64,000 bases of DNA. Source: a virus (lineage: Duplodnaviria > Heunggongvirae > Uroviricota > Caudoviricetes). The notes under the pieces were generated by a model. That model did no database searches. It had not been told where the DNA came from and saw only the letters and a program-made list of their open reading frames with translations. Below, one piece after another: positions 22,358-64,000 of this stretch; the first letter of the stretch is position 1, and each line of letters begins with the position of its first letter. The translations under genes and the position numbers were made by a program. The stretch lies in the IMG/VR virus record IMGVR_UViG_3300009419_001390; one strand, given 5' to 3'.

Positions 22358-22361
22358 TCGT

Positions 22362-46467: not shown

Positions 46468-46890
46468 ATGAGTGAAATGCTACCACTAGGCGAAGGATTG
46501 TTTCCAGCAATGGGATCAATGCGAATAAGGCACAAAATCAGTAAGCTGGCTCCGTTAAAGGACAAAGTACTTGTTCGCGACATGAACTTCAGCGGACGCA
46601 AATTATCAAGTGGTATTGTGTTACTTGGCGATGATAAAACAACAGCTGGTATTCGTCCTCGTTGGGCGCAGGTATATGCTGTGGGACCAGAGCAAACAGA
46701 AGTCACATCTGGACAATGGATCATGGTTGAACATGGTCGTTGGAGCCGCGGTATTGACATTGAAATCAACGATGAACAATTCACTCTACGTCTTGTTGAT
46801 CCCAAAGCTATCATGTTTGTTAGTGACAACGAGCCCGACATTGATGATACTCTGAGCAGTGCTGTTCAGGCAGAAAGCAAGACTAGATAA
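46468..46890 (+). CDS. groES: co-chaperonin GroES-like (Cpn10); start may be an internal ATG (46510/46519)
   Basis: KLAPLKDKVLVR...SGIVLLGD...AQVYAVGP co-linear with GroES IRPLHDRVIVK...GGIVLTGS...GEVLAVGN. Confidence 0.55.
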   Translation: MSEMLPLGEGLFPAMGSMRIRHKISKLAPLKDKVLVRDMNFSGRKLSSGIVLLGDDKTTAGIRPRWAQVYAVGPEQTEVTSGQWIMVEHGRWSRGIDIEINDEQFTLRLVDPKAIMFVSDNEPDIDDTLSSAVQAESKTR

Positions 46891-47036
46891 TGCCAATGTA
46901 CGAAGCTGTGGTGCGTACACCCGAAGGCGAAAAGAAGCAACGGGTGTGGGCACCGGATATGAAAACTGCTCGTCACCTGTTGGAACAAGAGTACGGCATT
47001 AAAAATGTTCCATATCAACCAAAAATAGTTCCTAAC
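46890..47036 (+). CDS. hypothetical 48-aa protein
   Basis: TAATG coupling; not in ORF track. Confidence 0.3.
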
Positions 47037-47047
47037 TAATAATTCCT

Positions 47048-47290
47048 ATGGGATTCCGCAAACCTAACTTAGAAGATGCTTACTCGGTGATACGTAATTC
47101 ATTGGTTGAAATAAATTCGCCATATAATGACGGTTTCACCGGATTCGCTTGCAAACAAGAACTATATCAGTTAAAATGTTGGTTAGAGGATGCTTACGAC
47201 AACTTACCAAATTTTGATGGAGAAGACGCATGGGAACAGGAACGGATAGTACAGATATTAAAGAGGAAGCCAAAAAACGTTCACACGTGA
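47048..47290 (+). CDS. hypothetical protein
   Basis: ORF track. Confidence 0.4.
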   Translation: MGFRKPNLEDAYSVIRNSLVEINSPYNDGFTGFACKQELYQLKCWLEDAYDNLPNFDGEDAWEQERIVQILKRKPKNVHT

Positions 47291-47697
47291 TGGCTAAACT
47301 ATATCGAGGTTCTCTTGATATACTGCGCACCAAACACGAAATTCTAAGCAACAGTCTTATTGGACATGTTCGTAGTTTTGATCGAGACGCAGAAGAAAAA
47401 GATTATGCCTACGTTGAAAGCATGGGCTTTTGGCGCATGCTGGTAGAATTAATATTCCAAGTGTATGTACAGGTCAGTTTGTGCGTGGGCATACTGTTGG
47501 TGGTACTGCTGGTAATCTTTGCTTGGCCAATTCGATTCATGGTCGAAGCATTTTCTGGTAGTCTTTTTGCAAGTCACAAAACTATCTACGCATACGAACC
47601 ACATATACAACCAACCATGGACCCTGCGCCCGAACCAGCTGATACAAAAGTAGTTCGTCGCATGGTGTACGAAGAAACAAAGGTACCTAAAAAATGA
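47290..47697 (+). CDS. membrane protein (central TM segment)
   Basis: TGATG coupling; hydrophobic core LLVVLLVIFAWPI. Confidence 0.4.
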   Translation: MAKLYRGSLDILRTKHEILSNSLIGHVRSFDRDAEEKDYAYVESMGFWRMLVELIFQVYVQVSLCVGILLVVLLVIFAWPIRFMVEAFSGSLFASHKTIYAYEPHIQPTMDPAPEPADTKVVRRMVYEETKVPKK

Positions 47698-47915
47698 GAT
47701 TCAAACTAGACATTCCTGCTAACCCTGTTCAAGGGGATACCACAGCATGGAAACCAGTATTCTTACTGTTCCCAAAACAAATTGAAAATCAAATTGTTTG
47801 GCTTGAGACCGTGAAGTATCGTAAAATATACATGATCAAACAACGTCCTACCAAAGCCGGCCCTGTGCTTGGCGGTGCGTGGGAACATGAATGGAAGTTA
47901 CCGGAGAACGTATGA
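47694..47915 (+). CDS. hypothetical protein
   Basis: ATGA coupling both ends. Confidence 0.4.
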   Translation: MRFKLDIPANPVQGDTTAWKPVFLLFPKQIENQIVWLETVKYRKIYMIKQRPTKAGPVLGGAWEHEWKLPENV

Positions 47916-48829
47916 AAGAATTGTGGGTAGAAAAATACCGTCCCAAGACCATGGGCGAATATGTGTTCATTGATGACACACAGCGTGATCAAGTTGCGGC
48001 TTGGGTCAAAGATGGACACATCCCACATTTGTTGCTGAGTGGAGGTCCTGGCACTGGCAAGACCACACTAGCACGTATGCTGATCAATGAGCTCAAGATT
48101 GACGAATACGATGTGATGCAGATCAATGCCAGTAACGAAACCAAGGTTGAGATCATGCGTGACAAGGTACTTGGCTTTGCAAGTACCATGCCGTTTGGTG
48201 AGTTCAAAGTTATCCTGTTAGACGAGGCAGACTATCTAAGTCCCAACTCACAGGCATTGTTGCGTAATGCAATGGAAACATATCACGCCAGTGTGCGTTT
48301 TATATTCACTTGCAATGCGCCACACAAGATTATTCCTGCACTGCATTCACGGTGCCAGGGTTTTCATATTGCCAAACAGGATCATACAGAGTTTACAGCT
48401 AGAGTGGCCACTGTGTTGGTAACAGAAGGCATTGATTTTGATATTGACACACTGGACAGTTATGTCAAAGCAACATATCCTGATCTGCGTAAATGTTTGA
48501 ATCTGGTGCAATTGAACGGACAAGATGGCGCTCTCAAGAAACCACGTGAAGGTGACAAGTCTGTAAGTGACTGGAAACTTGACACTGTGGAACTGTTCAA
48601 ATCTGGCAAAATTCGCGAAGCACGTCAATTGCTATGCACACAAGCGGCTCCAGAAGAAATGGAAGATGTATTCCGTTGGATGTATGACAACGTCGACATC
48701 TGGGGCAAAACACCAGAACAACAAGACTCTGCTATCTTAATCATTCGCAAAGGTTTGGTCAACCATACCATGTGTGCTGATTCTGAAATCAATTTGAGTG
48801 CTACAATAATTGAGCTTACACAACTTTAA
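47912..48829 (+). CDS. sliding-clamp loader AAA+ subunit (T4 gp44 / RFC small subunit-like)
   Basis: Walker A GGPGTGKTT, Walker B ILLDEAD, SRC motif (HSRCQGF). Confidence 0.75.
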   Translation: MKELWVEKYRPKTMGEYVFIDDTQRDQVAAWVKDGHIPHLLLSGGPGTGKTTLARMLINELKIDEYDVMQINASNETKVEIMRDKVLGFASTMPFGEFKVILLDEADYLSPNSQALLRNAMETYHASVRFIFTCNAPHKIIPALHSRCQGFHIAKQDHTEFTARVATVLVTEGIDFDIDTLDSYVKATYPDLRKCLNLVQLNGQDGALKKPREGDKSVSDWKLDTVELFKSGKIREARQLLCTQAAPEEMEDVFRWMYDNVDIWGKTPEQQDSAILIIRKGLVNHTMCADSEINLSATIIELTQL

Positions 48830-49938
48830 TGCAAGACTTTGAAATACTTGAACCTTTCCCTGGTCCTGAAAGCAAGATGTCTTTTTTGCTGGATTGGGAG
48901 CTCACTCTCAAGTGTAACCTAGATTGTTCCTACTGCGGCGATGGTCATGACAACAGCACCAAACATCCACCTGTTGCGGAATGTCTAGAAACCATTGACT
49001 TTATGTACAAGTACGTGGATCTCTATATGCAACATAGAATTCGTGGCTTGCAAAGAGTGGTTCTAAATGTGTATGGCGGAGAAAGTCTGCATCATCCAGA
49101 TATTGTCCAGGTGCTAGAACAGGTACGTGCTCGATACCAACCTTATCGAGACCGTTGGAATCTGTGTATAACCACCACAACCAATGCCATTGTTAGTTCA
49201 GCCAAGCTGGAAAAAATCATTCCATTGATTGATGAATTTACAGTAAGCTATCATACAGAATCCACAGACAAGCAAAAAGATCTGTTTAGAAAAAATATAC
49301 TTCAAATCAAAGCCGCTGGCAAAGATATAAAATGTGTGGTGCTGATGCATCCACAAGGCGAATTATTTGATGATGCTCAGCACATGGTCAGCTGGCTGGA
49401 AAAAAATCAAGTTAGACTATTGCCGCGTCAATTGGACCATCAAGAACCTGAAAAATACACTTACAAAGAGCACCAAGTGGTATGGTTTGATAAATTATAC
49501 AACAAAAGCAGTTACGGAGTTGATGTTCAATTGCCTGCAGGAGATACGGATCTAACGCAGACTGGACGAAGCTGTTGTGGTGGCAAACAGCTTTGTGGGG
49601 ATAATAATTTTACCCAACGTCACAGTTTTGTAAACAATGTTTTCACTGGCTGGAGTTGTTCAGTCAACTGGTTCTTTTTATTTGTCAAACAGGTAACAGG
49701 ACATATATACACCAATAGAGATTGTCAGATGAATCTTGAAGGAACTGTGGGTCCAATTGGGCATTTAGATCGCACCCAACAACTGCTGGAAACTCTGGAA
49801 CAACAATTGACTACTGGCACTGTTCCAGTTATTACTTGTGCTAAAAAAATCTGCTATTGTGGATTGTGTGCGCCCAAAGCACAAACCAAAGATCAGTTTG
49901 TAGAAATGTTCAAAAAATATCAAGGAGTAAAAACGTGA
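48829..49938 (+). CDS. radical SAM enzyme with Cys-rich C-terminal (SPASM/twitch-like) region
   Basis: CNLDCSYC (CxxxCxxC) and GGE(S) motif; C-terminal SCCGGKQLC...CAKKICYCGLC. Confidence 0.6.
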   Translation: MQDFEILEPFPGPESKMSFLLDWELTLKCNLDCSYCGDGHDNSTKHPPVAECLETIDFMYKYVDLYMQHRIRGLQRVVLNVYGGESLHHPDIVQVLEQVRARYQPYRDRWNLCITTTTNAIVSSAKLEKIIPLIDEFTVSYHTESTDKQKDLFRKNILQIKAAGKDIKCVVLMHPQGELFDDAQHMVSWLEKNQVRLLPRQLDHQEPEKYTYKEHQVVWFDKLYNKSSYGVDVQLPAGDTDLTQTGRSCCGGKQLCGDNNFTQRHSFVNNVFTGWSCSVNWFFLFVKQVTGHIYTNRDCQMNLEGTVGPIGHLDRTQQLLETLEQQLTTGTVPVITCAKKICYCGLCAPKAQTKDQFVEMFKKYQGVKT

Positions 49939-50378
49939 GTAAAGAAAAAGGCATTTATTTGGTAGCAAAATATTTCATGAAGCCGCAGGCGCATGTGAAC
50001 ACTAGCAAAGCAGGATGGATGGACAACCCAGAAAACATTCGCTGGGACGAACAAATGCTGGTCACTCGCGGGCTCAAATCCAAAGACAACAGTGCTCAAG
50101 TTATTTTGAATTTAAGCGAAAAGTCTGTTGTGCGCAACACCTTCACGCAAGGTAAAACATTCGACGAAGTTTTTATCTACTTTCTAAACGGTTACAGTCA
50201 ATACTTGGTTCCTGTTATGGGACAGCTGGATCGTGAATATCTTGAAGCAATTGCCGCAGAACTGCAAACACAATTGCCTCCAGAAACAATGACAGATGAA
50301 GAAATGAAAGCCGCACAGGCTGCACAATCTTCCAACCAAATCGTTGACGCAGAGTATGAAGAAGTTAAAGCTGAGTGA
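49935..50378 (+). CDS. hypothetical protein (GTG start, AAGGAG SD)
   Basis: GTGA overlap with the radical SAM stop. Confidence 0.4.
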   Translation: MSKEKGIYLVAKYFMKPQAHVNTSKAGWMDNPENIRWDEQMLVTRGLKSKDNSAQVILNLSEKSVVRNTFTQGKTFDEVFIYFLNGYSQYLVPVMGQLDREYLEAIAAELQTQLPPETMTDEEMKAAQAAQSSNQIVDAEYEEVKAE

Positions 50379-50676
50379 AAGCGGACAGCGAGGGTGGTTT
50401 GTGGGTGACTTTCCTGAAGCTGTGCATCGCACCAAGGACTTTGAAGTAAACTGGCAGACCAACGCTCGCCAGCACAGTCCCACACACTATCACAAAATTG
50501 TTACAGAAATACAGTTGGTAACTCGTGGACGCATGATGGTGAATGGTATTATTTTTGAAGCCGGTGACATTTGTGTGCTTGAGCCTGGGGATATGAGTCA
50601 AATACACATCCTGGAAGAAACTGACACAGTAGCCATTAAATTTCCATCTGTGCCCGACGATAAATATTTGTTATGA
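50356..50676 (+). CDS. cupin-fold protein
   Basis: GWFVGDF...HYH...GDICVLEPGD...AIKFPS cupin-like motif pattern. Confidence 0.45.
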   Translation: MKKLKLSESGQRGWFVGDFPEAVHRTKDFEVNWQTNARQHSPTHYHKIVTEIQLVTRGRMMVNGIIFEAGDICVLEPGDMSQIHILEETDTVAIKFPSVPDDKYLL

Positions 50677-50918
50677 TGCACCCAAAATTTCTAAAGGCAA
50701 TGAAGGCACCCAAGAAGCGGGCAGTGGATCCTCTTGCTCCACCACGCCCAAACTTGCTTTCACATGACAAAGAAATTCGTGGAATGAAAACCACTGGCGA
50801 ACTTGCTATGCAACAAATCATGAACTTGCAAGATCAGGTACACAAGCTAGAACGCAAACTAGCCCGCCAAACCAGCTACTTAGACGCCCTACACCGCCAG
50901 TCCGTGCTTAAAAAATAA
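50673..50918 (+). CDS. hypothetical basic/coiled-coil protein
   Basis: ATGA coupling. Confidence 0.4.
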   Translation: MMHPKFLKAMKAPKKRAVDPLAPPRPNLLSHDKEIRGMKTTGELAMQQIMNLQDQVHKLERKLARQTSYLDALHRQSVLKK

Positions 50919-51004
50919 GCAGAAGTAGCACTTTTGCAACATTTTTGGGCAAAAAACCCTTATAAATCAATGACTTACAGCACCTGAAAAGTGCTGTAAA
51001 ACGG

Positions 51005-51033
51005 TTGACCCAAATGGCTCGTTTTGCTATACT
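51005..51033 (+). promoter_or_regulatory. early promoter box cggTTGACC-17-TATACT (copy 3)
   Basis: aaaacggttgacc.aaatggctc.ttttg.tatact shared with 6891..6926. Confidence 0.6.
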
Positions 51034-51063
51034 ATATTCATAGTAAACAAATAAGGAGCTGAA

Positions 51064-51297
51064 ATGACTGAATTCGAAAAAAACTGCTACGGTATAACAG
51101 AAGCTGATATCCGTGAAGAATACATGGAATCAATTACTGCTAGATTCAGCGGACTGGAAATGGTTGCAATGGGTGTGCTGAGTGATGCACAAGAACTGTT
51201 GGCAATGGGCCGTTCAGATGCCGCTCGCAAGCAGATGAACATTGCAAAATTTATCCTGTCAGAAATGATGGAAGCTCGTCGTTCAGTGGAGGCTTAA
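51064..51297 (+). CDS. hypothetical protein
   Basis: AAGGAG SD. Confidence 0.45.
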   Translation: MTEFEKNCYGITEADIREEYMESITARFSGLEMVAMGVLSDAQELLAMGRSDAARKQMNIAKFILSEMMEARRSVEA

Positions 51298-51298
51298 T

Positions 51299-51580
51299 AT
51301 GAAACAGAATCATACCATGTACATCTACAAAACGGACCGTCGTACAAAAACTGGCGAGCGTCTGTTCAGTACTACAGTTTGGCAAAACCGTGATGCGGCT
51401 GAAATGCGCCGTGAAGTGCGTGAACTGCAATATCAACTGTACCCTACCAGCCAGTTCCGCATTGAGTTCCATCCTACCACTGTGACTGTGAAGAACTTGA
51501 TGACTGGCAAAGATATCCAAATTGATCGTGACACTCCTTGGTGTTGCAACCCGGCGTCTGAAACTTATTGGAGCATGTGA
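51299..51580 (+). CDS. hypothetical protein
   Basis: ORF track. Confidence 0.4.
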   Translation: MKQNHTMYIYKTDRRTKTGERLFSTTVWQNRDAAEMRREVRELQYQLYPTSQFRIEFHPTTVTVKNLMTGKDIQIDRDTPWCCNPASETYWSM

Positions 51581-51582
51581 AC

Positions 51583-52269
51583 ATGGCCAAGACCTACAAG
51601 ATTGAATCCCGTAAACTGGTTGCCCTGGCTTTTGCGGCTCAGCGTGTGAATGGTGCCATGTACAAAGACAATCTTTTCTTTGACACCAGCAAGGATGCGG
51701 TTGTTGAAGTGGTTCCAAACAAGACCTTGATGTTCAACAGTTTTGCAATCGAACCCGGTAGCAATCCAGAGCTGGTACCCACAGACGAAGACTTTGCACA
51801 AGCAGATGCGGCTATCAGTGCTATTCAGGGTGACGTACTGATCAAGAAACTTGCAGATCGCCGTGTTAATGATTTCCAATTCAAACTCAGTGAAACAATC
51901 AGTCAGCCCACTTGCACCCAACGTGACTGCGGCTTGGTTGCGTTTGTGCCCAAGACCTATGTTGGCATGCTAGAGCGCCAGGAAAAAACTGAAGCCAAAA
52001 TTGTGTTGGCCAGTACCAGTGAGTATCTGGGCCGTGTGGGTGAAAAACTACAACTGGATTTTGTTCTAATTGACAGCCGTTACCTTCAGCAGTATAATTG
52101 CTACTCTGTTACAGGGCATGATGATAATGGCAACATGGTTAGTTTTTTGACTGCGCACCAGTCACTGGCCCAAAGCGGACGCATTGCTGGCAAGGTCAAA
52201 CGTATTGAACAAAGCCCGTATCACAATGGCGCCAAGGTAACCCAACTGAATTTTGTAAAGGCAATATAA
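51583..52269 (+). CDS. hypothetical protein (about 228 aa)
   Basis: ORF track 51568 with ATG at 51583. Confidence 0.45.
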   Translation: MAKTYKIESRKLVALAFAAQRVNGAMYKDNLFFDTSKDAVVEVVPNKTLMFNSFAIEPGSNPELVPTDEDFAQADAAISAIQGDVLIKKLADRRVNDFQFKLSETISQPTCTQRDCGLVAFVPKTYVGMLERQEKTEAKIVLASTSEYLGRVGEKLQLDFVLIDSRYLQQYNCYSVTGHDDNGNMVSFLTAHQSLAQSGRIAGKVKRIEQSPYHNGAKVTQLNFVKAI

Positions 52270-52658
52270 TGGAATTTGAAAAAAAAGTAAATTGGCAGAC
52301 TCACACCGGCGGTAATGGCCTGTGGAGCAAAGAGCAAAAAGCCGTTACCATCCTTGAGGTATCTTTACGCAATGTCAATGACGAGGGTGACTTCGGCGAA
52401 CTGTGTGCAAGATTCGACACCAAGACTTGGAACTGTGATGCCGACGGACTGATCTATACAGACAATATCTGGCTTGATGAGTTTCGTGCTCTCATGCGTA
52501 GCCTGGGTTTTACTCGTGCCGCTGTGAACGACATCAGCTTTAGCGAACAAGGCATGCAAGGTTGTAACTTTGTGAGCATGGATGTGGGCGAGAATTTCAT
52601 GCGTGAAGTAGAACCCATGTATCGTTTTACCATTAACAAAGAGGCTATCAATGCTTGA
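52269..52658 (+). CDS. hypothetical protein
   Basis: TAATG coupling. Confidence 0.4.
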   Translation: MEFEKKVNWQTHTGGNGLWSKEQKAVTILEVSLRNVNDEGDFGELCARFDTKTWNCDADGLIYTDNIWLDEFRALMRSLGFTRAAVNDISFSEQGMQGCNFVSMDVGENFMREVEPMYRFTINKEAINA

Positions 52659-52938
52659 TTTTAGTGATTACCATATTCCCGATCATACGCAGACTGCGCT
52701 GACAGACTATATTGAGCGTGGTATTCCTGTGGGCGGATTCTTGCATGCTGTACTCAGCAACGATCTTTTTGGTGCTGTGGGCCGTGCTGACGCACAAAAT
52801 TTGCCCGCACTCAAGGACATCACCGGCTGGATTTTTATGCAGGCTCCGCAGGGCAGTTGGGGTAGTGAAGCCCTGGTACTTCGTTGGATACAAGAACATC
52901 CTTCAAAGAAGTCAAGAGGTCCAAAAGATATTGCATAA
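52651..52938 (+). CDS. hypothetical protein
   Basis: overlapping start. Confidence 0.4.
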   Translation: MLDFSDYHIPDHTQTALTDYIERGIPVGGFLHAVLSNDLFGAVGRADAQNLPALKDITGWIFMQAPQGSWGSEALVLRWIQEHPSKKSRGPKDIA

Positions 52939-52962
52939 TCTGCGATTGTCTGTTACACTTGG

Positions 52963-52970
52963 TATAAATA
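52963..52970 (+). promoter_or_regulatory. perfect T4-type late promoter motif TATAAATA upstream of dnaK
   Basis: exact 8-mer. Confidence 0.4.
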
Positions 52971-52973
52971 TTT

Positions 52974-53002
52974 GTACGTGGATGCCACTGCGGTCCACGT
53001 AC
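52974..53002 (+). promoter_or_regulatory. perfect 9-bp inverted repeat (GTACGTGGA-N11-TCCACGTAC) in the dnaK leader
   Basis: read from sequence; sits between promoter motif and AAGGAG SD. Confidence 0.5.
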
Positions 53003-53029
53003 AAAACCATTTGTTTAAGGAGATAAAAA

Positions 53030-54964
53030 ATGGGCAAAATCATCGGTATCGATCTGGGTACCACAAACTCGTGTGTTGCCGTAATGGAAGGCAACGTTCC
53101 AAAAGTAATCGAAAACAGCGAAGGCGCACGTACTACCCCTAGTATTGTAGCATACGCCAATGACGAAGTCTTGGTTGGTGCAAGTGCAAAACGTCAGGCT
53201 GTGACCAATTCAAAGAACACCATCTACGCCGCCAAGCGTCTGATTGGTCGTAAGTTCAAAGAAGACGCTGTGCAGAAAGACATCGATATGATGCCTTTCA
53301 AAATTGTTGAAGCTAAAAATGGTGATGCTTGGATCAGCGCCAACAACAGCGAACTAGCACCACCGCAAATCTCAGCTGAGGTATTGCGTAAAATGAAACA
53401 AACTGCTGAGGCATACCTTGGCACAGAAGTAACCCAAGCAGTTATCACAGTTCCTGCTTACTTCAATGACTCACAACGTCAAGCAACCAAAGACGCAGGT
53501 AAAATTGCAGGCCTAGAAGTGTTGCGTATCATCAATGAACCAACAGCGGCGGCTCTTGCTTATGGCATGGACAAAGCCACCAAGAAGGATGCCAAGATTA
53601 TTGTTTATGATCTAGGTGGCGGCACATTTGACGTATCGGTCATTGAAATTGCCAACGTGGATGGTGACAAACAGTTTGAAGTTCTTGCTACCAATGGTGA
53701 CACATTCTTGGGCGGTGAAGACTTTGACCAACGCATCATGGACTACTTGGTTGAAGAGTTCCAAAAAGAATCAGGTGTTGATCTAAGCAAGGACACACTG
53801 GCACTGCAACGTCTAAAGGACAGCGCAGAAAAGGCCAAGATTGAACTGTCTAGCAACACACAAACAGAAATCAACTTGCCTTATATCACAGCTGATGCAA
53901 GCGGTCCCAAGCACATGGCAATCAAACTAAGTCGTAGCAAGCTGGAAGGCTTGGTAACAGACTTGGTAGAACGTTCAATTGAACCATGCCGCATTGCTCT
54001 CAAGGATGCAGGCCTAACTACTGCCGACATTGACGACATTATCCTTGTTGGTGGACAAACACGCATGCCCATGGTACAAGGCTACGTGGAAAGTTTCTTT
54101 GGCAAGGCACCACGCAAAGACGTGAACCCAGGCGAAGCAGTGGCCGCGGGTGCGGCTATCCAGGGTGCTGTGTTGGCTGGAGACAAAACGGATGTTCTAC
54201 TCCTAGATGTCACACCACTCTCACTGGGTATCGAAACGCAAGGTGGAATTATGGCCAAGGTTATTACCAAGAACACAACCATTCCTACCAAGCAAACACA
54301 AGTGTTCTCCACAGCCGAGGACAATCAACCTGCGGTAACTATCAAGGTACATCAAGGTGAACGTGAAATGGCTCAGCACAACAAACTGTTGGGCGAGTTC
54401 AACTTAGAAGGTATTCCACCTGCCGCACGTGGCACACCGCAGATTGAAGTTACATTTGATGTGGACGTAAACGGTATCCTCAAGGTAAGTGCCAAAGACA
54501 AAGTCACAGGCAAGAGCAACAACATTACTATCAAGGCCAATTCAGGTCTGACAGAAGCCGAAATTGCACAGATGGTTGCGGATGCAGAAGCTAATGCCGA
54601 AGCTGACAAGAAGCAACGTGAACTGGTTGAGACTCGAAATGCGGCTGAACATCAAGTGTGGGGAGTTGAGAAAAATCTCAAGGAGCACGGTGACAAACTA
54701 TCTGAAGAAGAGCGCGAAGCAATTAAAACTGCCTTGCACGATTTCAAGAAAGTGCTGTCAGATGAAACAGATCCAGACAAGATCAATGAAGCTCTGCAGG
54801 CATTTGTACCAAAAGCCATGCCATTGTTTAACCTAGCCGGTCAAGCCGAAGAGGAAAAACAAAAGGCTGATGCTGAAGAAGTTAAATCCAAGAAGGAAGG
54901 CAAAGACGATAATGTAGTTGATGCTGAATTTACGGAAGTCAAAAAAGACGAAGAGTCTAAATAA
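53030..54964 (+). CDS. dnaK: molecular chaperone DnaK (Hsp70)
   Basis: [36 protein letters not shown] and full-length Hsp70 architecture ending in Glu/Lys-rich tail. Confidence 0.9.
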
Positions 54965-55008
54965 ACAACAAGGGGACTTAGGTCCCCTTACTTATTTCAA
55001 GGTATTAT

Positions 55009-56522: not shown

Positions 56523-56536
56523 GCTATAAAGGGTAG

Positions 56537-57334: not shown

Positions 57335-57360
57335 CTAAATAAGGGTAATGGACAAATAAT

Positions 57361-57906
57361 ATGGCGGCATCACTTAAAGACATTATTGAAAATACCAAGG
57401 ACATCTACATGACAGATAGTGCCTTGAATACCCTGCTGGATTTTGAGAGAGTACTAGACGAGCTTGATCTCTATGCTTTTGAAAACTGGAAAAAGGGCGA
57501 GTTAGTCGAAGGCCCCACTATTGAAAAGTATTTTGTAACTTGCATTTTCATGTGGCCCTACAAGCTCATGCCTGACCCACGTGGCGCAGAGCGACTGGCA
57601 GAATACGACTGTGAGATTCGCTACAAGCGAGATCACTTGGAAAACCCCAGACAAGTTAAAGGGCCTGATGACTACGAAGAAGGCACACATTATCCCAAGA
57701 TGGATCAAAAGCCAATTTGGTTAGTGGAAATTGTAATGCCCAAGAAACTAATTTCAGATATCAATCAAGGTAGCCTGGAACTAGAAAATGACACAGTGGA
57801 TCTAGAAGACGTAGACCAAGCGTATGAAACAGGTGCAGATGATGACGTTAATCGTACTCCTGACGCACAAGGCGGTCCCAGTGGTGTAACAGGAGCCGCA
57901 GTATGA
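57361..57906 (+). CDS. hypothetical acidic protein
   Basis: ORF track. Confidence 0.45.
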   Translation: MAASLKDIIENTKDIYMTDSALNTLLDFERVLDELDLYAFENWKKGELVEGPTIEKYFVTCIFMWPYKLMPDPRGAERLAEYDCEIRYKRDHLENPRQVKGPDDYEEGTHYPKMDQKPIWLVEIVMPKKLISDINQGSLELENDTVDLEDVDQAYETGADDDVNRTPDAQGGPSGVTGAAV

Positions 57907-58433
57907 GTATCGAACGCGGAGACCTAAAGCGACTGGTTCATAACGAAATACACATTGACGAGTTTGAAAGCAAACTTGGAAAAAATCGTGATGTTGTGGT
58001 ATTGAGTTTCAAAGTTGCTGGCAAAGCACCAGGCCAGGACATATGTGCCTTTGTAGAAAGAGGCTATGACTGGATATTAGACGCAGACGTTAGCTCTGGC
58101 GAAATGAACGACGGCGATTACATTGTGTTTGTTGAACTGCCTCGAGACCAAGACTGTGTTTCTCATATTATGGAGATGATGGCAGACCTTATGAATCTCA
58201 CTGAACAAGAACTAACTGACTATCGTGTGCGCTATCGTCATGACCAAACTGACAACAGCCTAGACGAGGAAACACTAAGACGAATGATTCCAGCATCGGC
58301 CACTGAGTACGATGCTAGATATGGCAAGAAAGAAATTGACAGCCTAAAAACTGCATCTGGTATGAAAGTTGATACCAAAGCACCAAAGAATGAATACACC
58401 GAAAGCCTGCGAGTTGCAGCCGGCATACTTTAA
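57903..58433 (+). CDS. hypothetical protein
   Basis: ATGA coupling. Confidence 0.45.
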   Translation: MSIERGDLKRLVHNEIHIDEFESKLGKNRDVVVLSFKVAGKAPGQDICAFVERGYDWILDADVSSGEMNDGDYIVFVELPRDQDCVSHIMEMMADLMNLTEQELTDYRVRYRHDQTDNSLDEETLRRMIPASATEYDARYGKKEIDSLKTASGMKVDTKAPKNEYTESLRVAAGIL

Positions 58434-58446
58434 TTAAGGAGCGGAA

Positions 58447-59076
58447 ATGAGTTTCAAATTTGATTTTACTGAAGCAAAGCTAAGACAGATTCTAGTAGGA
58501 GCACCACACGTGGATCAGTGGTTCCTGGCATTACAAGAAATTTTACCTGACTATGAGATTGACACCGCAGAGCGTGTGGCATGCTTCCTGGGGCAGACTG
58601 CACATGAGTCAGGTGGCTATCGTGCGCTACGTGAGAACCTAAACTATTCTGACAAAGGCCTAATGGGCATTTTCAAGAAGTATTTTCCTACACAGGAAAG
58701 CACAGTGGGTTATGTTCGTCAGCCAGAAAAAATTGCCAACAAGATCTACGCCAACCGTATGGGCAACGGTGACGAACGTTCCGGCGATGGCTGGAAGCAT
58801 CGTGGTCGTGGCTTGATTCAATTGACTGGCAAGTCAAACTATCAGGCATTTGCTGAATCAATTGAATGTTCACTTGAAGAAACAATTGAATTCTTAGAAA
58901 CCTACGAAGGCGCTGTGCAATCAGCTTGCTGGTTCTGGGAAAGCAACAATCTCAATGTTCAAGCAGATAAAATGGATATTAAATTACTGACCAAGAAGAT
59001 CAACGGTGGCTACATTGGGCTGGAAGATCGTATCAAGCATATTAATCATGCTTGTCATGTGCTGATTGGACACTGA
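58447..59076 (+). CDS. endolysin, glycoside hydrolase family 19 (chitinase-like lysozyme)
   Basis: FLGQTAHESGG and GRGLIQLTGKSNY GH19 catalytic motifs; AAGGAG SD. Confidence 0.65.
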   Translation: MSFKFDFTEAKLRQILVGAPHVDQWFLALQEILPDYEIDTAERVACFLGQTAHESGGYRALRENLNYSDKGLMGIFKKYFPTQESTVGYVRQPEKIANKIYANRMGNGDERSGDGWKHRGRGLIQLTGKSNYQAFAESIECSLEETIEFLETYEGAVQSACWFWESNNLNVQADKMDIKLLTKKINGGYIGLEDRIKHINHACHVLIGH

Positions 59077-59078
59077 TC

Positions 59079-59609
59079 ATGTTTGGCACACTAAGCTGGT
59101 TCATGGCTTTGTTGCCTGACAGCCTGCTGATGTGGATATTCTATGCCTGCTTTTTTGCAGGCATTGCCTTGATCCTAGCCAGCTGGTTCGTGAGTTTTAT
59201 TCCGCTGATCAATCGCTACCGTTTTCCTACGCAGATTGTTGGAATCTTGGCATATGGCCTGGGTGCGTTCTTGCTAGGCGGACATGGTATTGAAATGACC
59301 TGGCGCGAGCGTGTGGCTGAACTTGAAAAGAAAGTTGCTGCCGCAGAAGCCAAGAGTCAACAGGTCAACACTGTGATTGAAACCAAGATAGTAGAAAAAG
59401 TAAAAATTATCAAAGAAAAAGGACAGAAGCAGATTGAGTATATTGATCGTGTGGTCAAAGGTGACACAACAGAAATCACCAGAGACATGAGCGAACAAGA
59501 GCGCCAGGTATTTTTGGCCAAGCAAAAACAGCTAGAAGATTCAATTAAAAATTGTCCTGTTCCTGAGATAATTGTTGAAGAACTCAATAAGGCAGCTGAA
59601 CCAAAATGA
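59079..59609 (+). CDS. inner-membrane spanin-like protein or holin-like membrane protein (N-terminal TM helices + periplasmic coiled-coil)
   Basis: two N-terminal hydrophobic helices then charged coiled-coil; TGA-ATG coupled to endolysin. Confidence 0.4.
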   Translation: MFGTLSWFMALLPDSLLMWIFYACFFAGIALILASWFVSFIPLINRYRFPTQIVGILAYGLGAFLLGGHGIEMTWRERVAELEKKVAAAEAKSQQVNTVIETKIVEKVKIIKEKGQKQIEYIDRVVKGDTTEITRDMSEQERQVFLAKQKQLEDSIKNCPVPEIIVEELNKAAEPK

Positions 59610-59872
59610 AACTATATTCAATTTTACTTGTAACTTTGTTAACAGGATGTTCAACCACAGTTCCAGTGGTTATGAAATTCCCAGACATACCTCCTTCTCT
59701 AAATGAAAAGTGCCCAGCACTGAAAAAGATCGAAGGCAAAACTGTTAGCATTGTAGATTTGCATAAGACTGTGGTAGAGAACTACACTCAGCATCATGAA
59801 TGCGCGGCCAAGGTTGAAGCCTGGGTTGAGTGGCACAGGACACAAAAACAGATATATGAGAGCGTAAAATGA
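59606..59872 (+). CDS. outer-membrane spanin-like lipoprotein
   Basis: lipobox LLTGCS; small Pro-containing periplasmic domain; ATGA coupling. Confidence 0.5.
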   Translation: MKLYSILLVTLLTGCSTTVPVVMKFPDIPPSLNEKCPALKKIEGKTVSIVDLHKTVVENYTQHHECAAKVEAWVEWHRTQKQIYESVK

Positions 59873-60270
59873 AACGTCTATTGTTGATATTGTTGCCATT
59901 GTTGTTGTCAGGTTGTGCTGTGTGGGATGCATACTTCATGGCCAAATTTGATGTCAATGAATATCAGTACATATCTCGTATACGCACACATGCTGAAATT
60001 GGTAAAGATCTATGCGGTACCGATGCTGTGAAAAACGAGGTGCGTTATATCTATGTTGTTGCTAGTGAGTACAAAAACTATGCTGAACATATTCCACGCA
60101 ACAAAGACAGCTTTGAACTGGCTGACACGTTGACCAAGATAACCGACGAGTTCCACAAAAAATACCAAAGCGACAAGCCGCCCAGCGTGGCTTATTGTAA
60201 AGCCAAGTTTTCAGCAATTGAGCGCAGTTCAGAAAATATACAAAAGGTAATAGGAGCCAAGCCGCGATGA
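59869..60270 (+). CDS. lipoprotein (lipobox LLSGCA)
   Basis: signal peptide + Cys; ATGA coupling. Confidence 0.5.
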   Translation: MKRLLLILLPLLLSGCAVWDAYFMAKFDVNEYQYISRIRTHAEIGKDLCGTDAVKNEVRYIYVVASEYKNYAEHIPRNKDSFELADTLTKITDEFHKKYQSDKPPSVAYCKAKFSAIERSSENIQKVIGAKPR

Positions 60271-60530
60271 AAGCACAAGACATATTAGACAGTATTCACA
60301 GTACAGAAACACAAGATCCTGTTGCCGCGCAACTGGCTGCACAACTGGCAGAATACACTCAACAGTTCCAAACAGGTGAACTGAGCAATGAAGAATATCA
60401 AGAACTGGTAGCAGATTTACAAGTTGAACATCTAATAAACAGCAAATGCTCAGACCTTGCTGCCAAAGAAAGGTTAAATACAATATGTACTGCTGTGCTC
60501 AATGCAGCCAGCATGTTATCTAGCATATAA
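60267..60530 (+). CDS. hypothetical acidic protein
   Basis: ATGA coupling. Confidence 0.4.
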   Translation: MKAQDILDSIHSTETQDPVAAQLAAQLAEYTQQFQTGELSNEEYQELVADLQVEHLINSKCSDLAAKERLNTICTAVLNAASMLSSI

Positions 60531-60542
60531 GGTAAAAATAAA

Positions 60543-60803
60543 ATGATACAAGAACTTAACAAAAACAACCTAGACGCATTTGTCAGCCAAGGCGGATGGG
60601 TCGGCGACATAGCAAGCAAGACTAAAAATCTTGTGCGCTTGTACGAAAGCAAAGAAATGCCAACAGAAGCATTGATTCACATGCTTACTGAAATGATGAA
60701 AATGACTTCTGCAACTGCAACACCAGAAGAAATTCTTCGCAAGGACGACCTCAATGGGGTGACCACGGCAATTCTTGAAGACGCAAAAGCCGCATGGGCG
60801 TAA
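60543..60803 (+). CDS. hypothetical protein
   Basis: ORF track. Confidence 0.4.
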   Translation: MIQELNKNNLDAFVSQGGWVGDIASKTKNLVRLYESKEMPTEALIHMLTEMMKMTSATATPEEILRKDDLNGVTTAILEDAKAAWA

Positions 60804-60813
60804 GGAGTAAGCA

Positions 60814-61377
60814 ATGGCATTAATTGATTCAGTATTAAATTTAGTAAACAAACAACCAAAAGATCCGGACGCACCAAAGCCTCCAGTGGGTTCACGTTCA
60901 GAACGTGAAGCAAAATTAAAAGACAAAGCAGGTATGGTTATTTCTATCTTTGCTTTGTTACTAGCAGTCAACGCATGGTACGGTGGCAAACTATCCAGCA
61001 CAGTATTAAACAATACTCTAGGTGCCAACAACACCTGGGCACAATATCAAGCCAAAGCAGGTCGTGGTGTTAGCTACGAGATTGCGGCCAAGACAACAGC
61101 TGATCCAAAAATCAAAGCAGAATTCATGGCCGAGAAAGAACGCATGGATGCTGACAAGAAAGAAATTGCTGTCAAAGCAAGAGAGATGGAAGCCGCTAGA
61201 GAAGAAGCCAAAAAGTCCAGTCCATGGATTGGTTATGCAAGTACCGCGTACCAGCTGGCTATTGTTGTGTTATCAGCAAGTATCCTTGCAGTTAGCATGG
61301 CCATGTTCTGGGGTAGTTTTGCTGTAGCAGGTTTTGGAATACTGTTGAGTCTCAACGGTTTATTCCTCTGGTTCTAA
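60814..61377 (+). CDS. membrane protein (TM helices at about residues 40-60 and C-terminus)
   Basis: hydrophobic segments; charged coiled-coil loop. Confidence 0.45.
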   Translation: MALIDSVLNLVNKQPKDPDAPKPPVGSRSEREAKLKDKAGMVISIFALLLAVNAWYGGKLSSTVLNNTLGANNTWAQYQAKAGRGVSYEIAAKTTADPKIKAEFMAEKERMDADKKEIAVKAREMEAAREEAKKSSPWIGYASTAYQLAIVVLSASILAVSMAMFWGSFAVAGFGILLSLNGLFLWF

Positions 61378-61398
61378 TCAAATTAAAGGAGCATTCAA

Positions 61399-61890
61399 AT
61401 GCCAATCGGAAAACAAATTGCAGACCTAGGTGACACAGGCGATGCAGATCAAAAACTTTTAGGTGGACTACCACCTACTACATCACCAAGTGGATTTGGT
61501 GCAGTAACACCCAGCTTTGGGGCCGTGGCAGCAACATCAGCACCGCAACCTCAAGCCGCGCCACAAGGATACGCACCAGACCGCACAGCCAGTGCAGCCG
61601 CGGCAGTGGCTGGTGGTGCTGAAAGCACTGTGGCCAATACCAACACAGACTGGATCAACAACAAGTGGCGTCCAGCAATGGGTTGGTTGTACATGACAAC
61701 TTGTTTCATGGACTTTGTAGTTTTTCCAATTCTTTGGAGCATTTTACAAACTGTTCAAGGTGGCCAAGTCACAAGTCAGTGGCAACCACTGACACTGCAA
61801 GGCGCAGGCCTGTATCATATTGCCATGGGTGCTGTGCTTGGTATTGCCGCATATGGTCGTACCAAAGAAAAACTCGGCGACAAGCAGTAG
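61399..61890 (+). CDS. membrane protein (Ala/Pro-rich N-terminus, 2-3 C-terminal TM helices), holin-like candidate
   Basis: AAAGGAG SD; hydrophobic C-half. Confidence 0.45.
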   Translation: MPIGKQIADLGDTGDADQKLLGGLPPTTSPSGFGAVTPSFGAVAATSAPQPQAAPQGYAPDRTASAAAAVAGGAESTVANTNTDWINNKWRPAMGWLYMTTCFMDFVVFPILWSILQTVQGGQVTSQWQPLTLQGAGLYHIAMGAVLGIAAYGRTKEKLGDKQ

Positions 61891-61918
61891 CCAAATAAGT
61901 AATTGCATAAACAAGTCA

Positions 61919-61947
61919 GCGGAAATTGCCTAACAAGGGATTTCCGC
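61919..61947 (+). terminator. hairpin GCGGAAAT-N13-ATTTCCGC (weak U-tract)
   Basis: 8-bp perfect stem immediately before a promoter. Confidence 0.35.
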
Positions 61948-61976
61948 TTGACACATGGTTAATTAACGTGTAAACT
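61948..61976 (+). promoter_or_regulatory. sigma70 promoter TTGACA-17-TAAACT; ATG 61983 lies 7 nt after -10 (leaderless candidate)
   Basis: perfect -35, good -10. Confidence 0.55.
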
Positions 61977-61982
61977 ATGCGC

Positions 61983-62801
61983 ATGGACTACTATTCAACA
62001 CTAGGTGTTCCCAAAGGAGCATCTGAAGACGAAATTAAAAAAGCATACCGAAAACTGGCTATGCAACATCACCCTGATCGCGGTGGTGATCAAAACAAAT
62101 TCCAAAAGATTCAAGAAGCCTACGACACACTGGGCAATGCACACAAACGGCAACAGTATGACAACCCACAGCCGCAAGGCTTTGGTGGTGATGGCTTTCA
62201 CTTTCAATTCAATGGTGGAAGTGGGTTTGAGGATATTTTTGCCCAATTTGGATTTGGTGGGCCATTCCAACAGCAACGCAAGAATAAAGATTTACGAATA
62301 CAGATTGAATTGGACCTGGTTAGCACTTTGCATGATCAAAACAAAACGGTCAGTGTACAAACCACTACTGGCACTAGAGAAACTGTACAAGTAAACATTC
62401 CACGTGGAATTAGATCTGGACAACAAATGCGTTTCCCAGGACTGGGTGACAACATGTTCAATACCATTCCACGTGGTGATCTTTTTGTACATTTTGCAGT
62501 AAGGCCAGATCCACAATTTGATGTTGAAGGAGACGATGTTGTGTATCATTCAGTGATTGATGCATTAGATGCAATCACTGGCACAACAATTGATGTTCCA
62601 AATCTTGAAAGTAAAGTATATCGCATGACAGTGCCTGCAGGAACAACACATGGCACTAGAATGCGTTTGCCCAACCAAGGATTGTATAACCTTAACCAAC
62701 CTACTCGCGGGCACTTGATTGTAGAAATACAGTTGAGTGTCACTGCCAGAACCAGTGATGAAGCTGTTAGATTAGCTCAGCAACTTAAATCATTAAACTA
62801 A
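61983..62801 (+). CDS. J-domain co-chaperone, CbpA/DnaJ-like (J domain + DnaJ C-terminal domains, no Cys-rich zinc finger)
   Basis: DYYSTLGV...HPDR (HPD motif), Gly/Phe-rich linker, DnaJ_C-like repeats; alternative ATG 61977. Confidence 0.75.
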   Translation: MDYYSTLGVPKGASEDEIKKAYRKLAMQHHPDRGGDQNKFQKIQEAYDTLGNAHKRQQYDNPQPQGFGGDGFHFQFNGGSGFEDIFAQFGFGGPFQQQRKNKDLRIQIELDLVSTLHDQNKTVSVQTTTGTRETVQVNIPRGIRSGQQMRFPGLGDNMFNTIPRGDLFVHFAVRPDPQFDVEGDDVVYHSVIDALDAITGTTIDVPNLESKVYRMTVPAGTTHGTRMRLPNQGLYNLNQPTRGHLIVEIQLSVTARTSDEAVRLAQQLKSLN

Positions 62802-62822
62802 ATATTTTGGTAAAGGAACCAA

Positions 62823-64000
62823 ATGATACAAGCAAATCCAGAGATTGAGTTAATCATTAATGCTGCCGGCGAAAACGCCAAACGACACAAACACGAGTAT
62901 GTGACGCTAGAGCACCTTTTATTTGCAATCATCAATTATAAACCCTTTGGTGATCTGCTACGAAGCTATGGCACTGAAATAGACGTCATGCTTGATGAGT
63001 TGGAAATCTATAACAATCGTCTTGACACAGGTAACCTGTATTACGAAGAAGACTATCAGCCTAAGAAAACCCATGCACTTGAACGTGTGTTTAACCGTAG
63101 CCTGACACAGGTATTGTTTAGCGGTCGTAATCACATGCAGGTCATGGATTTGTTTTTGAGTCTAACTGGTGAACAAAACAGCCATGCCGCATACTTTATT
63201 ATCAAGTACGGAATTGATCGTGCCAAGTTTATTGAGTACTATAATGATCACTACAAAGAAGGCAGTAGTCGCAAGAATGCGGGAAAGCAAAGAGCATTGG
63301 AAATCTTAAAAGAATACTGCGATGACTTGAATGAACTTGCTAAACAAGGAAAAATTGATCCAGTGATTGGGCGTGAACACGAGCTAGAAGAGATTGCTCA
63401 TGTGTTGGCCAAGCGAAACAAATCAAACGTGCTCATGGTTGGTGATGCTGGTGTTGGCAAGACTGCGATTGCAGAAGGACTTGCACGTAAAATTATCAAA
63501 GGCGAAGTTCCTGACTATCTGCGTGACTACACAGTGTTTAATCTAGACATTGGCAATCTACTGGCAGGCTCAAAGTATCGCGGAGAGTTTGAAGAAAAAC
63601 TACGTGATGTTATCAAAGCATTGAACACTCGTGGCAAAAGTATTTTGTTTATTGATGAAGCGCATCAAATGCGTGGTGCAGGATCTGGATCTGGTAGCAA
63701 TGTAGACTTTGCTAACATGATCAAGCCAGCATTGACCAAAGGTCGCATTAAGGTTATTGCATCAACCACATGGGAAGAATATACACAGAGTTTTGAAAAG
63801 GATCGTGCGCTCATGCGCCGCTTCTATAGACTCACAGTGGATGAACCAACTCCTGCTGTGGCCAAAGATATCCTGCGCGGTCTGCGTTCACACTTTGAAG
63901 AATTCCATGGCGGAGTAATTGATGACTTTGCAATTGATGCCGCAGTTGAACTAAGTGTTCGTTATCAAACTGACAAGAAATTACCGGACAAGGCAATTGA
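62823..64000 (+). CDS. clpA: ClpA-like Clp/Hsp100 AAA+ chaperone, partial (runs off window end)
   Basis: Clp_N repeat (TLEHLLFAII), GREHELEE, Walker A GDAGVGKTAIAEGLA, STTWEEYTQSFEKDRALMRRF; closer to ClpA than ClpB over the visible part. Confidence 0.7.
   Translation, partial: MIQANPEIELIINAAGENAKRHKHEYVTLEHLLFAIINYKPFGDLLRSYGTEIDVMLDELEIYNNRLDTGNLYYEEDYQPKKTHALERVFNRSLTQVLFSGRNHMQVMDLFLSLTGEQNSHAAYFIIKYGIDRAKFIEYYNDHYKEGSSRKNAGKQRALEILKEYCDDLNELAKQGKIDPVIGREHELEEIAHVLAKRNKSNVLMVGDAGVGKTAIAEGLARKIIKGEVPDYLRDYTVFNLDIGNLLAGSKYRGEFEEKLRDVIKALNTRGKSILFIDEAHQMRGAGSGSGSNVDFANMIKPALTKGRIKVIASTTWEEYTQSFEKDRALMRRFYRLTVDEPTPAVAKDILRGLRSHFEEFHGGVIDDFAIDAAVELSVRYQTDKKLPDKAI

Follow-up and report, generated by a model that had tools for sequence, protein, structure and literature searches.

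The stretch of DNA analysed here (the window) comprises 64,000 nucleotides (nt) of the IMG/VR virus record IMGVR_UViG_3300009419_001390. Four chaperone genes lie on its plus strand toward the 3' end, encoding a GroES-like co-chaperonin, a DnaK (Hsp70), a J-protein and a ClpA-type unfoldase (Table 1). An initial annotation, made from the sequence alone, had assigned these four identities, with the J-protein described as lacking a zinc finger, and profile, alignment and fold matches showed that they were correct, with the genes at or near where it had placed them. Our reading covers the whole window and loci of about 20 kb around the anchor genes in relatives.

Table 1. Positions of the chaperone genes, their putative signals and other features in the 64,000-nt window
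Feature	Position	Strand	Remarks
Permuted (two-piece) transfer-messenger RNA (tmRNA) gene	24-310	+	Rfam RF04321, 97 bits; missed by ARAGORN
AhpC-type peroxiredoxin	4573-5112
CMD-family (AhpD-like) protein	5485-6015
Near-consensus sigma70 promoters, -10 box + 6 nt + ATG	14233-14270 and 16980-17018; also 20594-20642		genes 14268 and 17016 (first two sites)
Peptide deformylase	17440-17898
Initiation factor IF-1	22136-22357
Fe/Mn superoxide dismutase	22317-22925
NATAAATA motifs	23280, 30584, 34663, 40978, 46013, 56515 and others		probable late promoters
Late-promoter-like motif AATAAATA	46013-46020	+	22 nt upstream of gene 46042
GroES/Hsp10-like co-chaperonin, 140 amino acids	46468-46890	+	Pfam Cpn10, phrog_931, fold
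Sigma70-like promoter of dnaK, TTGCAT-N17-TACACT	52931-52959	+	just upstream of the late motif
Late-type motif TATAAATA of dnaK	52963-52970	+	sole exact copy in the window; 60 nt before dnaK
dnaK leader hairpin	52972-53004	+	9-12 bp stem, U-G pair, bulged G, two C-G pairs, loop
DnaK (Hsp70), 644 amino acids	53030-54964	+	AAGGAG Shine-Dalgarno sequence at 53017-53022
Terminator-like G+C hairpin with T-rich tail	54970-54989	+	just past the dnaK stop; consensus scan only
Lysis cassette	58447-61890		between PhoH and J genes; GH19 endolysin, DUF4337, Rz1-like protein, gene transfer agent (GTA)-type holin with three transmembrane segments
J-clpA hairpin	61916-61950	+	stem, UGCC, N6, GGG, stem; runs up to the promoter's -35 box
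Sigma70-like promoter of J-clpA, TTGACA-N17-TAAACT	61948-61976	+	directly before ATG 61977, 6 nt before ATG 61983
Class-B J-protein (CbpA / T. thermophilus DnaJ2-like)	61983-62801	+	open reading frame (ORF) opens at ATG 61977; DnaJ + DnaJ_C
ClpA-type Hsp100 unfoldase, first 392 residues	62823-64000	+	N-domain and most of D1; runs off the window

DnaK matched Pfam HSP70 with an E value of 2.5e-253 and scored above two NCBIfam equivalog cut-offs (NF001413, 980 bits against 648; TIGR02350, 908 bits against 823). The alignment with E. coli DnaK was end to end and spanned residues 1-603, and the interdomain linker and the substrate-binding domain with its lid were intact. A comparison set of 161 sequences was assembled from 81 viral DnaKs and the 80 closest bacterial ones, and the catalytic residues D8, K70, E171, D194, T199 and D201 were invariant in all of them (161/161). 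The window protein also retains K55, R56, L257 and E267, which we take to be DnaK-type nucleotide-cleft features tuned for GrpE; the roles of the DnaK nucleotide-cleft residues were reportedly the subject of Brehmer et al. 2001.

The neighbour-joining tree of the same sequences placed the 81 viral DnaKs in one group and the 80 bacterial DnaKs in the other. Together with the proteins of seven relatives (L001-L007), the window DnaK formed a subclade of 78-89% identity, sister to the 73 other viral DnaKs at 71-77%, and the identity of this group to the nearest bacteria, mostly Burkholderiales, was 65-75%. The initial annotation had considered both acquisition from a host and a long-standing phage lineage, and the separation of viral from bacterial DnaKs favoured the latter. 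Signature positions of the viral proteins numbered only seven. Residue 165 (K166 in E. coli) was Lys in all 80 bacterial sequences and Leu in 91% of the viral ones; this residue adjoins R167 of the J-domain binding site.

The GroES-like protein scored 25 bits with Pfam Cpn10, for which the cut-off is 21.1, and matched phrog_931, a 'head morphogenesis' family, with an E value of 4e-11; its score of 21 bits was below the cut-off of 136 for the NCBIfam GroES equivalog. It has 1748 metagenomic relatives, many of which were named GroES by JGI. The AlphaFold model, for which 36 relatives served as input, had a predicted local distance difference test (pLDDT) score of 75, with low values at residues 41-60, the expected position of the mobile loop. 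When this model was searched with Foldseek, the 14 top PDB matches were Cpn10/GroES chains plus T4 gp31, with target-normalised TM scores of about 0.6. Both the sequence and the model point to a functional analogue of T4 gp31. The stop codon of gene 46042 abuts the start of the GroES-like gene, and the two genes are probably co-transcribed.

The J-protein matched Pfam DnaJ (E 1.5e-23) and DnaJ_C (E 5.2e-34); its HHPD occupies residues 31-34, and residues 66-98 form the G/F stretch. Since it contains no cysteine, it has no zinc finger. Its top full-length PDB matches were T. thermophilus DnaJ2 and a CbpA-like protein, and type-I DnaJ aligned to it in two blocks that skipped its residues 157-224, where the zinc-finger region falls. 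It scored below the CbpA equivalog cut-off (NF007618, 115 bits against 403), and the gene downstream is clpA, not cbpM; judged by sequence, it is a class-B J-protein but not CbpA proper. The best 120 matches were all metagenomic, with identities of 50-99% and many of them on contigs of 200-360 kb, and bacterial CbpA and DnaJ were about 30% identical to it.

The part of ClpA within the window matched Clp_N, AAA and AAA_lid_9, and ClpA was its top NCBIfam model, below the equivalog cut-off (TIGR02639, 824 bits against 993). The complete gene was read in L163, a 241-kb ENA contig from a near-identical relative, in which clpA encodes 766 residues, 390 of 392 identical over the part shared with the window. 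This protein has two Walker A/B sets, a D2 domain, GYVG and KYRGEFE pore loops and no ClpB-type M-domain. It also carries the ClpP-docking IGF loop (NNIGFGR), at a position that lies beyond the end of the window; the IGF is likewise present in ClpA of L002-L007, Agrobacterium phage Atu_ph07 and Sinorhizobium phage Phosso. ClpB, the bi-chaperone disaggregase that works with DnaK and a J-protein, was considered for this gene and ruled out, since the proteins of the relatives are 763-766 residues long, carry the IGF and are matched by ClpB models in two separate pieces. On the L005 homologue, which aligns to E. coli ClpA residues 3-749, the ClpB models covered two separate stretches only.

The best 120 matches of the ClpA fragment (51-88% identity) were from metagenome assemblies, two of them with an organism label, both partial and from unclassified metagenome-assembled genomes; bacterial ClpA was about 41% identical. 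All homologues of ClpA and of the J-protein above 50% identity were metagenomic. Many metagenomic ClpA relatives are only about 515-530 residues long (P0008, P0009, P0019, P0051), with an N-domain, D1 and lid and no Pfam match for D2. They are not truncated by the ends of their contigs, which measure 37-295 kb, and could be single-ring variants or split genes.

All four chaperone genes are under purifying selection, with ratios of nonsynonymous to synonymous change (pN/pS) of 0.12-0.28, computed against L002 with synonymous sites saturated (DnaK 0.12, ClpA 0.14, GroES-like 0.27, J-protein 0.28). Because they belong to deep viral or metagenomic lineages and are under purifying selection, their sequences mark them as functional genes that phages have kept for a long time, and not as passengers acquired recently.

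The window comes from a very large T4-like freshwater jumbo phage with a genome of at least 241-270 kb. It encodes T4/cyanomyovirus-like virion proteins (top match S-CAM1, 43.6%), baseplate- or fibre-like giants of 1032-2277 residues, a replication factor C (RFC)-type clamp loader, a DNA ligase and PhoH. A weak Pfam Gp23 match was also obtained in the window, and the ORF behind it was not located. The order of fibre genes, GroES, clamp loader, DnaK, PhoH, lysis genes, J and ClpA was kept in nine contigs, namely L001-L007 from IMG/VR, the longest of which measures 354,959 bp, and L163 and L164 from two other assemblies. These contigs are independent and come from different samples, and since all of them keep the gene order, the co-occurrence of the chaperone genes is not due to chance. 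A megablast search of the 46-64 kb region against 50,697 phage records gave zero matches, so no close cultured relative was present there. Searching for the exact sequence of the DnaK likewise retrieved no contig.

The NATAAATA motif was found 12 times on the plus strand of the window and once on the minus strand, usually 15-35 nt before fibre or structural genes, and by this placement the sites are probably T4-like late promoters of the phage. The structural genes behind them have short leaders and no hairpins. The count of the dnaK motif TATAAATA in the window was not significant when taken alone. Of 66 distinct viral dnaK upstream regions, however, 64 had ATAAATA (as T/C/G-ATAAATA) at a distance of 54-82 nt from the ATG, compared with 2 of 78 bacterial ones, and a strong hairpin directly followed it in 61 of those 64 viral regions. 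With this conservation and the covarying stem described below, the late-type motif and structured leader that had been noted for dnaK in the initial annotation were upheld. Its view that the late motif drives dnaK was right only in part. The sigma70-like promoter just upstream of that motif was also kept in L001-L007, as TTGCAT/TTGAAT/TTGATT-N17-TACAAT/TAAACT, so the expression of dnaK is probably not purely late, the protein being made early too.

By the motif-to-start spacing of T4 late promoters, the late dnaK transcript would start at about 52976, which would place the hairpin at its extreme 5' end. The hairpin is followed by a U-rich stretch and then by the AAGGAG Shine-Dalgarno sequence. 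The leader of T7 gene 10, a highly expressed gene, consists of a 5' stem-loop, a U-rich enhancer and a strong Shine-Dalgarno sequence, and the order of phage promoter, 5' hairpin, UUUGUUUAAGGAG and ATG is the same as in dnaK. The two hairpins have no sequence homology, and the one studied here differs in having a conserved apical motif and in occurring also upstream of a second operon. By analogy, this layout suggests a stable and strongly translated dnaK mRNA. In the same leader (53007-53033), a weak helix can form between AAAUGG, in which the dnaK start codon lies, and a conserved CCAUUU situated before the Shine-Dalgarno sequence; both of its sides are invariant in relatives, and it might mask the AUG in the manner of an RNA thermometer.

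The J-clpA operon begins directly after the holin gene. Its sigma70-like promoter was almost invariant in L001-L007 while the flanking intergenic sequence varied, and the J gene has no Shine-Dalgarno sequence. The predicted transcript start is the A of ATG 61983, which supports a leaderless mRNA. Since the Shine-Dalgarno sequence is absent and the spacing of -10 box, 6 nt and ATG is conserved, ATG 61983 (MDYY...) is probably the true start of the protein. A leaderless J gene behind its own sigma70 promoter had been proposed before, and this arrangement was conserved in all relatives, with the same geometry at genes 14268 and 17016. The phage may thus use several leaderless early mRNAs; IF-1 is also phage-encoded. 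When the J promoter was used as a DNA pattern to scan IMG/VR, only four contigs were recovered, all of them known before.

The spacer of the J promoter (61954-61970, CATGGTTAATTAACGTG) was itself almost invariant in relatives and contains the palindrome TTAATTAA, which could be an operator for a regulator. Late-type motifs were also seen in this operon. TATAAATA lies between J and clpA in L001, L002, L004 and L005 as a putative separate late promoter of clpA, where the window has CTAAATA (62802-62822), and ATAAATA precedes the J hairpin in L004-L007, the window version having decayed to ATAAGTA.

The hairpins before dnaK and before J-clpA are of one kind. When the dnaK hairpin was folded with seven relatives by RNAalifold, compensatory changes were found in 9 of 21 predicted pairs and no stem pair was broken; the J hairpin had 5 compensatory pairs. 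In an alignment of 13 sequences of both hairpins, 99.4% of the cells were paired, compared with 66% after shuffling and 19-47% with the partners slid, and double changes occurred in 9 of the 12 stem pairs. A covariance model built on them (R1) found exactly two sites in the window with filters off, at J (43.1 bits) and dnaK (35.8 bits), the next best scoring 16.6. The model found two corresponding sites in each of the relatives, a few sites in the loci of the sister clade, at or just past dnaK, and no site in the bacterial dnaK loci, of which 580 kb were scanned. No Rfam family covers the hairpin, the only match being a sub-threshold one to freshwater-2 (RF02980; 23.3 bits against 49.9, E 0.11, 52951-53032); in ten sister loci freshwater-2 gave no gathering-level match, and a literature search on that name returned nothing relevant. 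Two other explanations of the inverted repeats were rejected. CIRCE or another DNA operator was ruled out because the stems vary in sequence and covary, and an intrinsic terminator because no T-run follows either hairpin.

The sister clade, represented by loci L008-L080, carries a comparable leader module of hairpin, CTT(A/G)CTT, AAGGAG and ATG. It was present in 146 copies in 1.16 Mb, about 30 nt before start codons, of which 72 preceded dnaK, 62 hsp20 and 3 groES, the remainder being mostly before small unclassified ORFs; the module is thus nearly confined to chaperone genes. The hairpin may be either a chaperone-specific element or a general high-expression device, as far as its placement tells. 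The chaperone content of these loci also differs: Hsp20 and ClpS follow DnaK in nearly all of them, groES-groEL lie directly after dnaK in 3, ClpP is encoded in 4 and a ClpX-like protein in 12, and GrpE in none. A sister-clade cluster of about 410 residues that had been taken for ClpA was ClpX-like and was rejected as such. The conserved block of this clade comprises DnaK, Hsp20, ClpS, heme oxygenase and ferredoxin-dependent bilin reductase, plus CsgG-like curli secretion genes.

GrpE, GroEL, ClpP, ClpS and Hsp20 were not found in the window, in the L001-L007 loci or in the L163 locus. No GrpE was detected by hidden Markov model in the window or in 80 viral loci (0/81), whereas grpE adjoins dnaK in 77 of 80 bacterial loci; no GroEL was detected by tblastn in the window or in the loci of close relatives, and the set has no linked grpE, cbpM, clpS or clpP in the window. 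The description of the set as near-complete in the initial annotation does not agree with these results, nor does its suggestion that the phage supplies folding capacity instead of relying on the host heat-shock response. Since none of GrpE, GroEL, ClpP and ClpS was found in the window or the relatives' loci, host partners are probably still needed, and the phage proteins probably plug into host GrpE, GroEL and ClpP.

Our preferred explanation, which we hold to be probable though with real reservations, is that a long-inherited phage chaperone set acts together with host partners and not in their place. That a functional Hsp70 with its J-protein, an unfoldase dependent on ClpP and a co-chaperonin are produced by the phage, kept under selection and placed under its own promoters is well supported by the sequence; the host partners, the timing, the clients and the role of the hairpin are what we infer. 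The GroES-like protein, whose gene lies downstream of the NATAAATA late motif, would cap host GroEL as T4 gp31 does. DnaK and the J-protein, which lacks a zinc finger, would together drive an Hsp70 cycle in which nucleotide exchange still depends on another factor, presumably GrpE of the host, and the ClpA-type unfoldase would dock through its IGF on ClpP, presumably that of the host, and so unfold or degrade proteins. The dnaK gene would be expressed from both the sigma70-like and the late promoter, with a late mRNA that opens with a stable 5' hairpin, and J-clpA would be read as a leaderless mRNA from the sigma70-like promoter, with the hairpin just upstream. The net effect would be more, and retargeted, capacity for folding, disaggregation and unfolding, serving a very large virion proteome in a slow-growing host.

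Several points weigh against this explanation. GrpE, ClpP, GroEL, ClpS or Hsp20 may be encoded elsewhere in the genome, outside the window and the 20-kb loci, and the sister-clade phages do encode GroES-GroEL, ClpP, ClpX, ClpS and Hsp20. All the promoters were assigned by motif, and the region as a whole had no more sigma70-like matches than shuffled sequence. A simple stabiliser role does not account for the conserved apex of the hairpin (U-G, bulged G, CC/GG). The DnaK tree is distance-based and its sequences were picked by similarity to the query, and for these two reasons a single origin of the viral DnaKs needs a proper phylogeny.

Other explanations place the chaperones outside the phage or turn them against the host. 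Since the DnaK is 65-71% identical to proteobacterial DnaK and several matching GenBank 'phage' records are bacterial contamination, it had to be considered whether the region is a piece of bacterial chromosome or an assembly chimera, or whether heat-shock genes of the host were captured recently as passengers. Such an origin is extremely unlikely: grpE and dnaJ are not beside dnaK, as grpE is in nearly all of the bacterial loci, a phage late motif and a phage-specific hairpin precede the gene, the identical synteny recurs in independent contigs of different samples, and the viral clades are deep and under purifying selection. Together with the T4-like structural proteins, the late motifs and synteny in viral contigs of up to 355 kb, these observations refute the bacterial chromosome segment against which the initial annotation had itself cautioned. 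A role in counter-defence or host take-over, in which the chaperones neutralise host systems that use or monitor chaperones (e.g., the DnaJ-dependent bNACHT25 or toxin-antitoxin-chaperone modules), is in our judgement unlikely but better founded. They could also turn the heat-shock response of the host off by delivering sigma32 for degradation. ClpA with ClpP would remove host defence or regulatory proteins. The early-type promoters at J-clpA, with its leaderless mRNA, and at dnaK suit take-over more than morphogenesis, the window carries a MazE-like antitoxin domain and MazG genes, and the conserved J-ClpA pairing keeps the idea open. PMC12619734 puts such a role forward for phage heat-shock proteins, citing PMC12169576, and cites the RB43 J-protein Rki as able to act on sigma32. 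The late motifs before dnaK and, in relatives, before clpA and the J hairpin speak instead for expression that is late and high. With its full DnaK, whose substrate-binding domain is intact, and its full class-B J-protein, the set resembles a general folding machine, and no conserved defence-related neighbour lies beside the chaperone genes.

Two narrower explanations assign the set a particular client. According to the initial annotation, it specifically folds the very large tail-fibre proteins (1032-2277 residues) late in infection, and the position of the GroES-like gene, 1.9 kb downstream of the fibre cluster and behind a late motif, as well as the late motif and high-expression-type leader of dnaK, would agree with this. 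Proximity is all that links them to the fibres, though, and the chaperone genes are spread across 17 kb among replication and lysis genes. In T4, gp31 with GroEL folds the capsid protein, and the fibres have dedicated chaperones, gp57A and gp38; in the sister clade, DnaK adjoins Hsp20, ClpS and GroESL with no fibre genes nearby. We therefore consider a fibre-specific role improbable. A role in the remodelling of complexes, with DnaK and J, and ClpA, disassembling or activating replication-initiation complexes, has precedents in the host DnaK/DnaJ that remodel lambda P-DnaB and in P1 RepA, which is remodelled by DnaK/DnaJ or by ClpA. The window thus encodes the two activities known to act on RepA, a clamp loader and a DNA ligase are present, and the J-to-ClpA pair, conserved out to Atu_ph07 (gp293, gp292) and Phosso, suggests a functional couple. 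T4-like phages encode a helicase loader and replication machinery themselves, none of them is known to replicate with the help of DnaK, and no initiator-like gene is linked to the set, which leaves this role with very little probability.

Hence co-operation of a long-inherited phage set with host partners remains our preferred reading. A wider form of it, which we offer as a conjecture and think somewhat doubtful, is that a large aquatic T4-like radiation has long inherited a virus-specific Hsp70 lineage without GrpE, and that its chaperone genes form a small 'heat-shock-like regulon' marked by an RNA leader module, in which the covarying hairpin has a conserved U-rich stretch and a Shine-Dalgarno sequence behind it. 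In that case the chaperone mRNAs would share control of their stability or translation through a phage or host factor that binds the hairpin apex. The shared hairpin and the sister-clade module would provide a simple handle on the co-ordination of phage chaperone genes. More generally, the chaperones that phages carry reveal where host functions become limiting for the making of very large virions. An Hsp70 and J-protein without an exchange factor, a ClpA without a linked ClpP and a GroES without GroEL make a compact, conserved test case, in which the phage proteins would be expected to interact specifically with those of the host.

Several other genes in the window bear on the host and on the physiology of infection. 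The closest bacterial DnaKs are those of freshwater Burkholderiales, and a second permuted tmRNA, in L021 (2143-2487), matched the betaproteobacterial tmRNA model. Because of this nearest DnaK neighbour and the betaproteobacterial-type permuted tmRNA, the host is probably a freshwater betaproteobacterium, as far as sequence affinities can tell. The tmRNA is relevant to ClpA, since ssrA-tagged proteins are substrates of ClpAP and ClpXP; the putative tag frame in the window runs from GCA at 281 for about 32 codons and ends in ...EAAFA. With the tmRNA, peptide deformylase, IF-1, superoxide dismutase, peroxiredoxin and CMD protein all present, the wider theme of the window is protein biogenesis and quality control, plus oxidative stress. 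The deformylase shows EGCLS and HELDH motifs. In the lysis cassette, the Rz1-like protein is LysC, as seen in L163.

PHROGs families already exist for all these chaperones, and comparable sets in jumbo phages have been published. ClpA is conserved in many cultured jumbo phages, including Rak2-like and PA5oct-like ones (PMC6102473; PMC7824862), and in Atu_ph07 it lies next to DnaJ (PMC6102473). Hsp10, Hsp20, DnaJ, ClpA, ClpX, ClpS and ClpP are encoded by jumbo phages (PMC7824862), DnaK belongs to the most frequent composite ATPases in huge phages (PMC8297831), and the moraphages of Perez-Hernandez et al. 2025, large aquatic phages with core ClpA and PhoH, include DnaK, DnaJ and Hsp20 (PMC12619734). 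The set is thus less unusual than the initial annotation had suggested, ClpA, DnaJ, Hsp10, Hsp20 and DnaK all having been reported before in those four papers. Because of these published sets, the gene set itself adds little. What we did not find described is an apparently single viral DnaK clade without GrpE, the conserved late promoter with its hairpin leader, the occurrence of one hairpin type at both dnaK and J-clpA, and the leaderless J mRNA.

Compared with T4 gp31, the window co-chaperonin of 140 residues has an N-terminal extension of about 25 residues, and gp31 was merely rank 13 among its fold matches. The window protein matches Pfam Cpn10 directly, unlike gp31, for which we know of no direct sequence match to that family. 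Otherwise it resembles gp31 and the Hsp10 of group 2 and 3 jumbo phages, which are likewise phage co-chaperonins with the GroES fold that are expected to work with host GroEL (PMC7824862).

The adjacent order of J and then ClpA is shared with Atu_ph07 (gp293 DnaJ, gp292 ClpA) and Phosso. In these jumbo myoviruses, too, the J-protein is about 270 residues long with J and C-terminal domains, and ClpA is about 765 residues long with an IGF. The identities to them are just 41-42% for ClpA and 29-33% for J, and their hosts are Alphaproteobacteria. Neither phage has a DnaK by tblastn, nor is one listed in the papers describing them; Atu_ph07 has ClpB, ClpX, ClpP, ClpS and Hsp20 instead. In Phosso, a peptide deformylase lies between the J and Clp genes.

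The moraphages are likewise freshwater jumbo phages with core ClpA and PhoH, some with DnaK and DnaJ, for which the authors call the role of the chaperones unknown (PMC12619734). Their DnaKs nest in the Flavobacteriaceae and their predicted hosts are Bacteroidota (PMC12619734), whereas the bacteria nearest to the window DnaK are Burkholderiales and the viral DnaKs form a clade of their own. By their published description, the moraphages are also set apart by lying outside the T4 group (PMC12619734), whereas the window has T4/cyanomyovirus-like structural proteins.

With the cellular DnaK-CbpA system of E. coli, the DnaK-DnaJ2 system of T. thermophilus and ClpAP, the phage proteins share the HPD motif, the G/F stretch, DnaJ_C, the Walker motifs, the pore loops and the IGL/IGF. 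They differ from these systems in being placed behind phage promoters and in that the J-protein and ClpA score well under the equivalog cut-offs, with DnaK above them.

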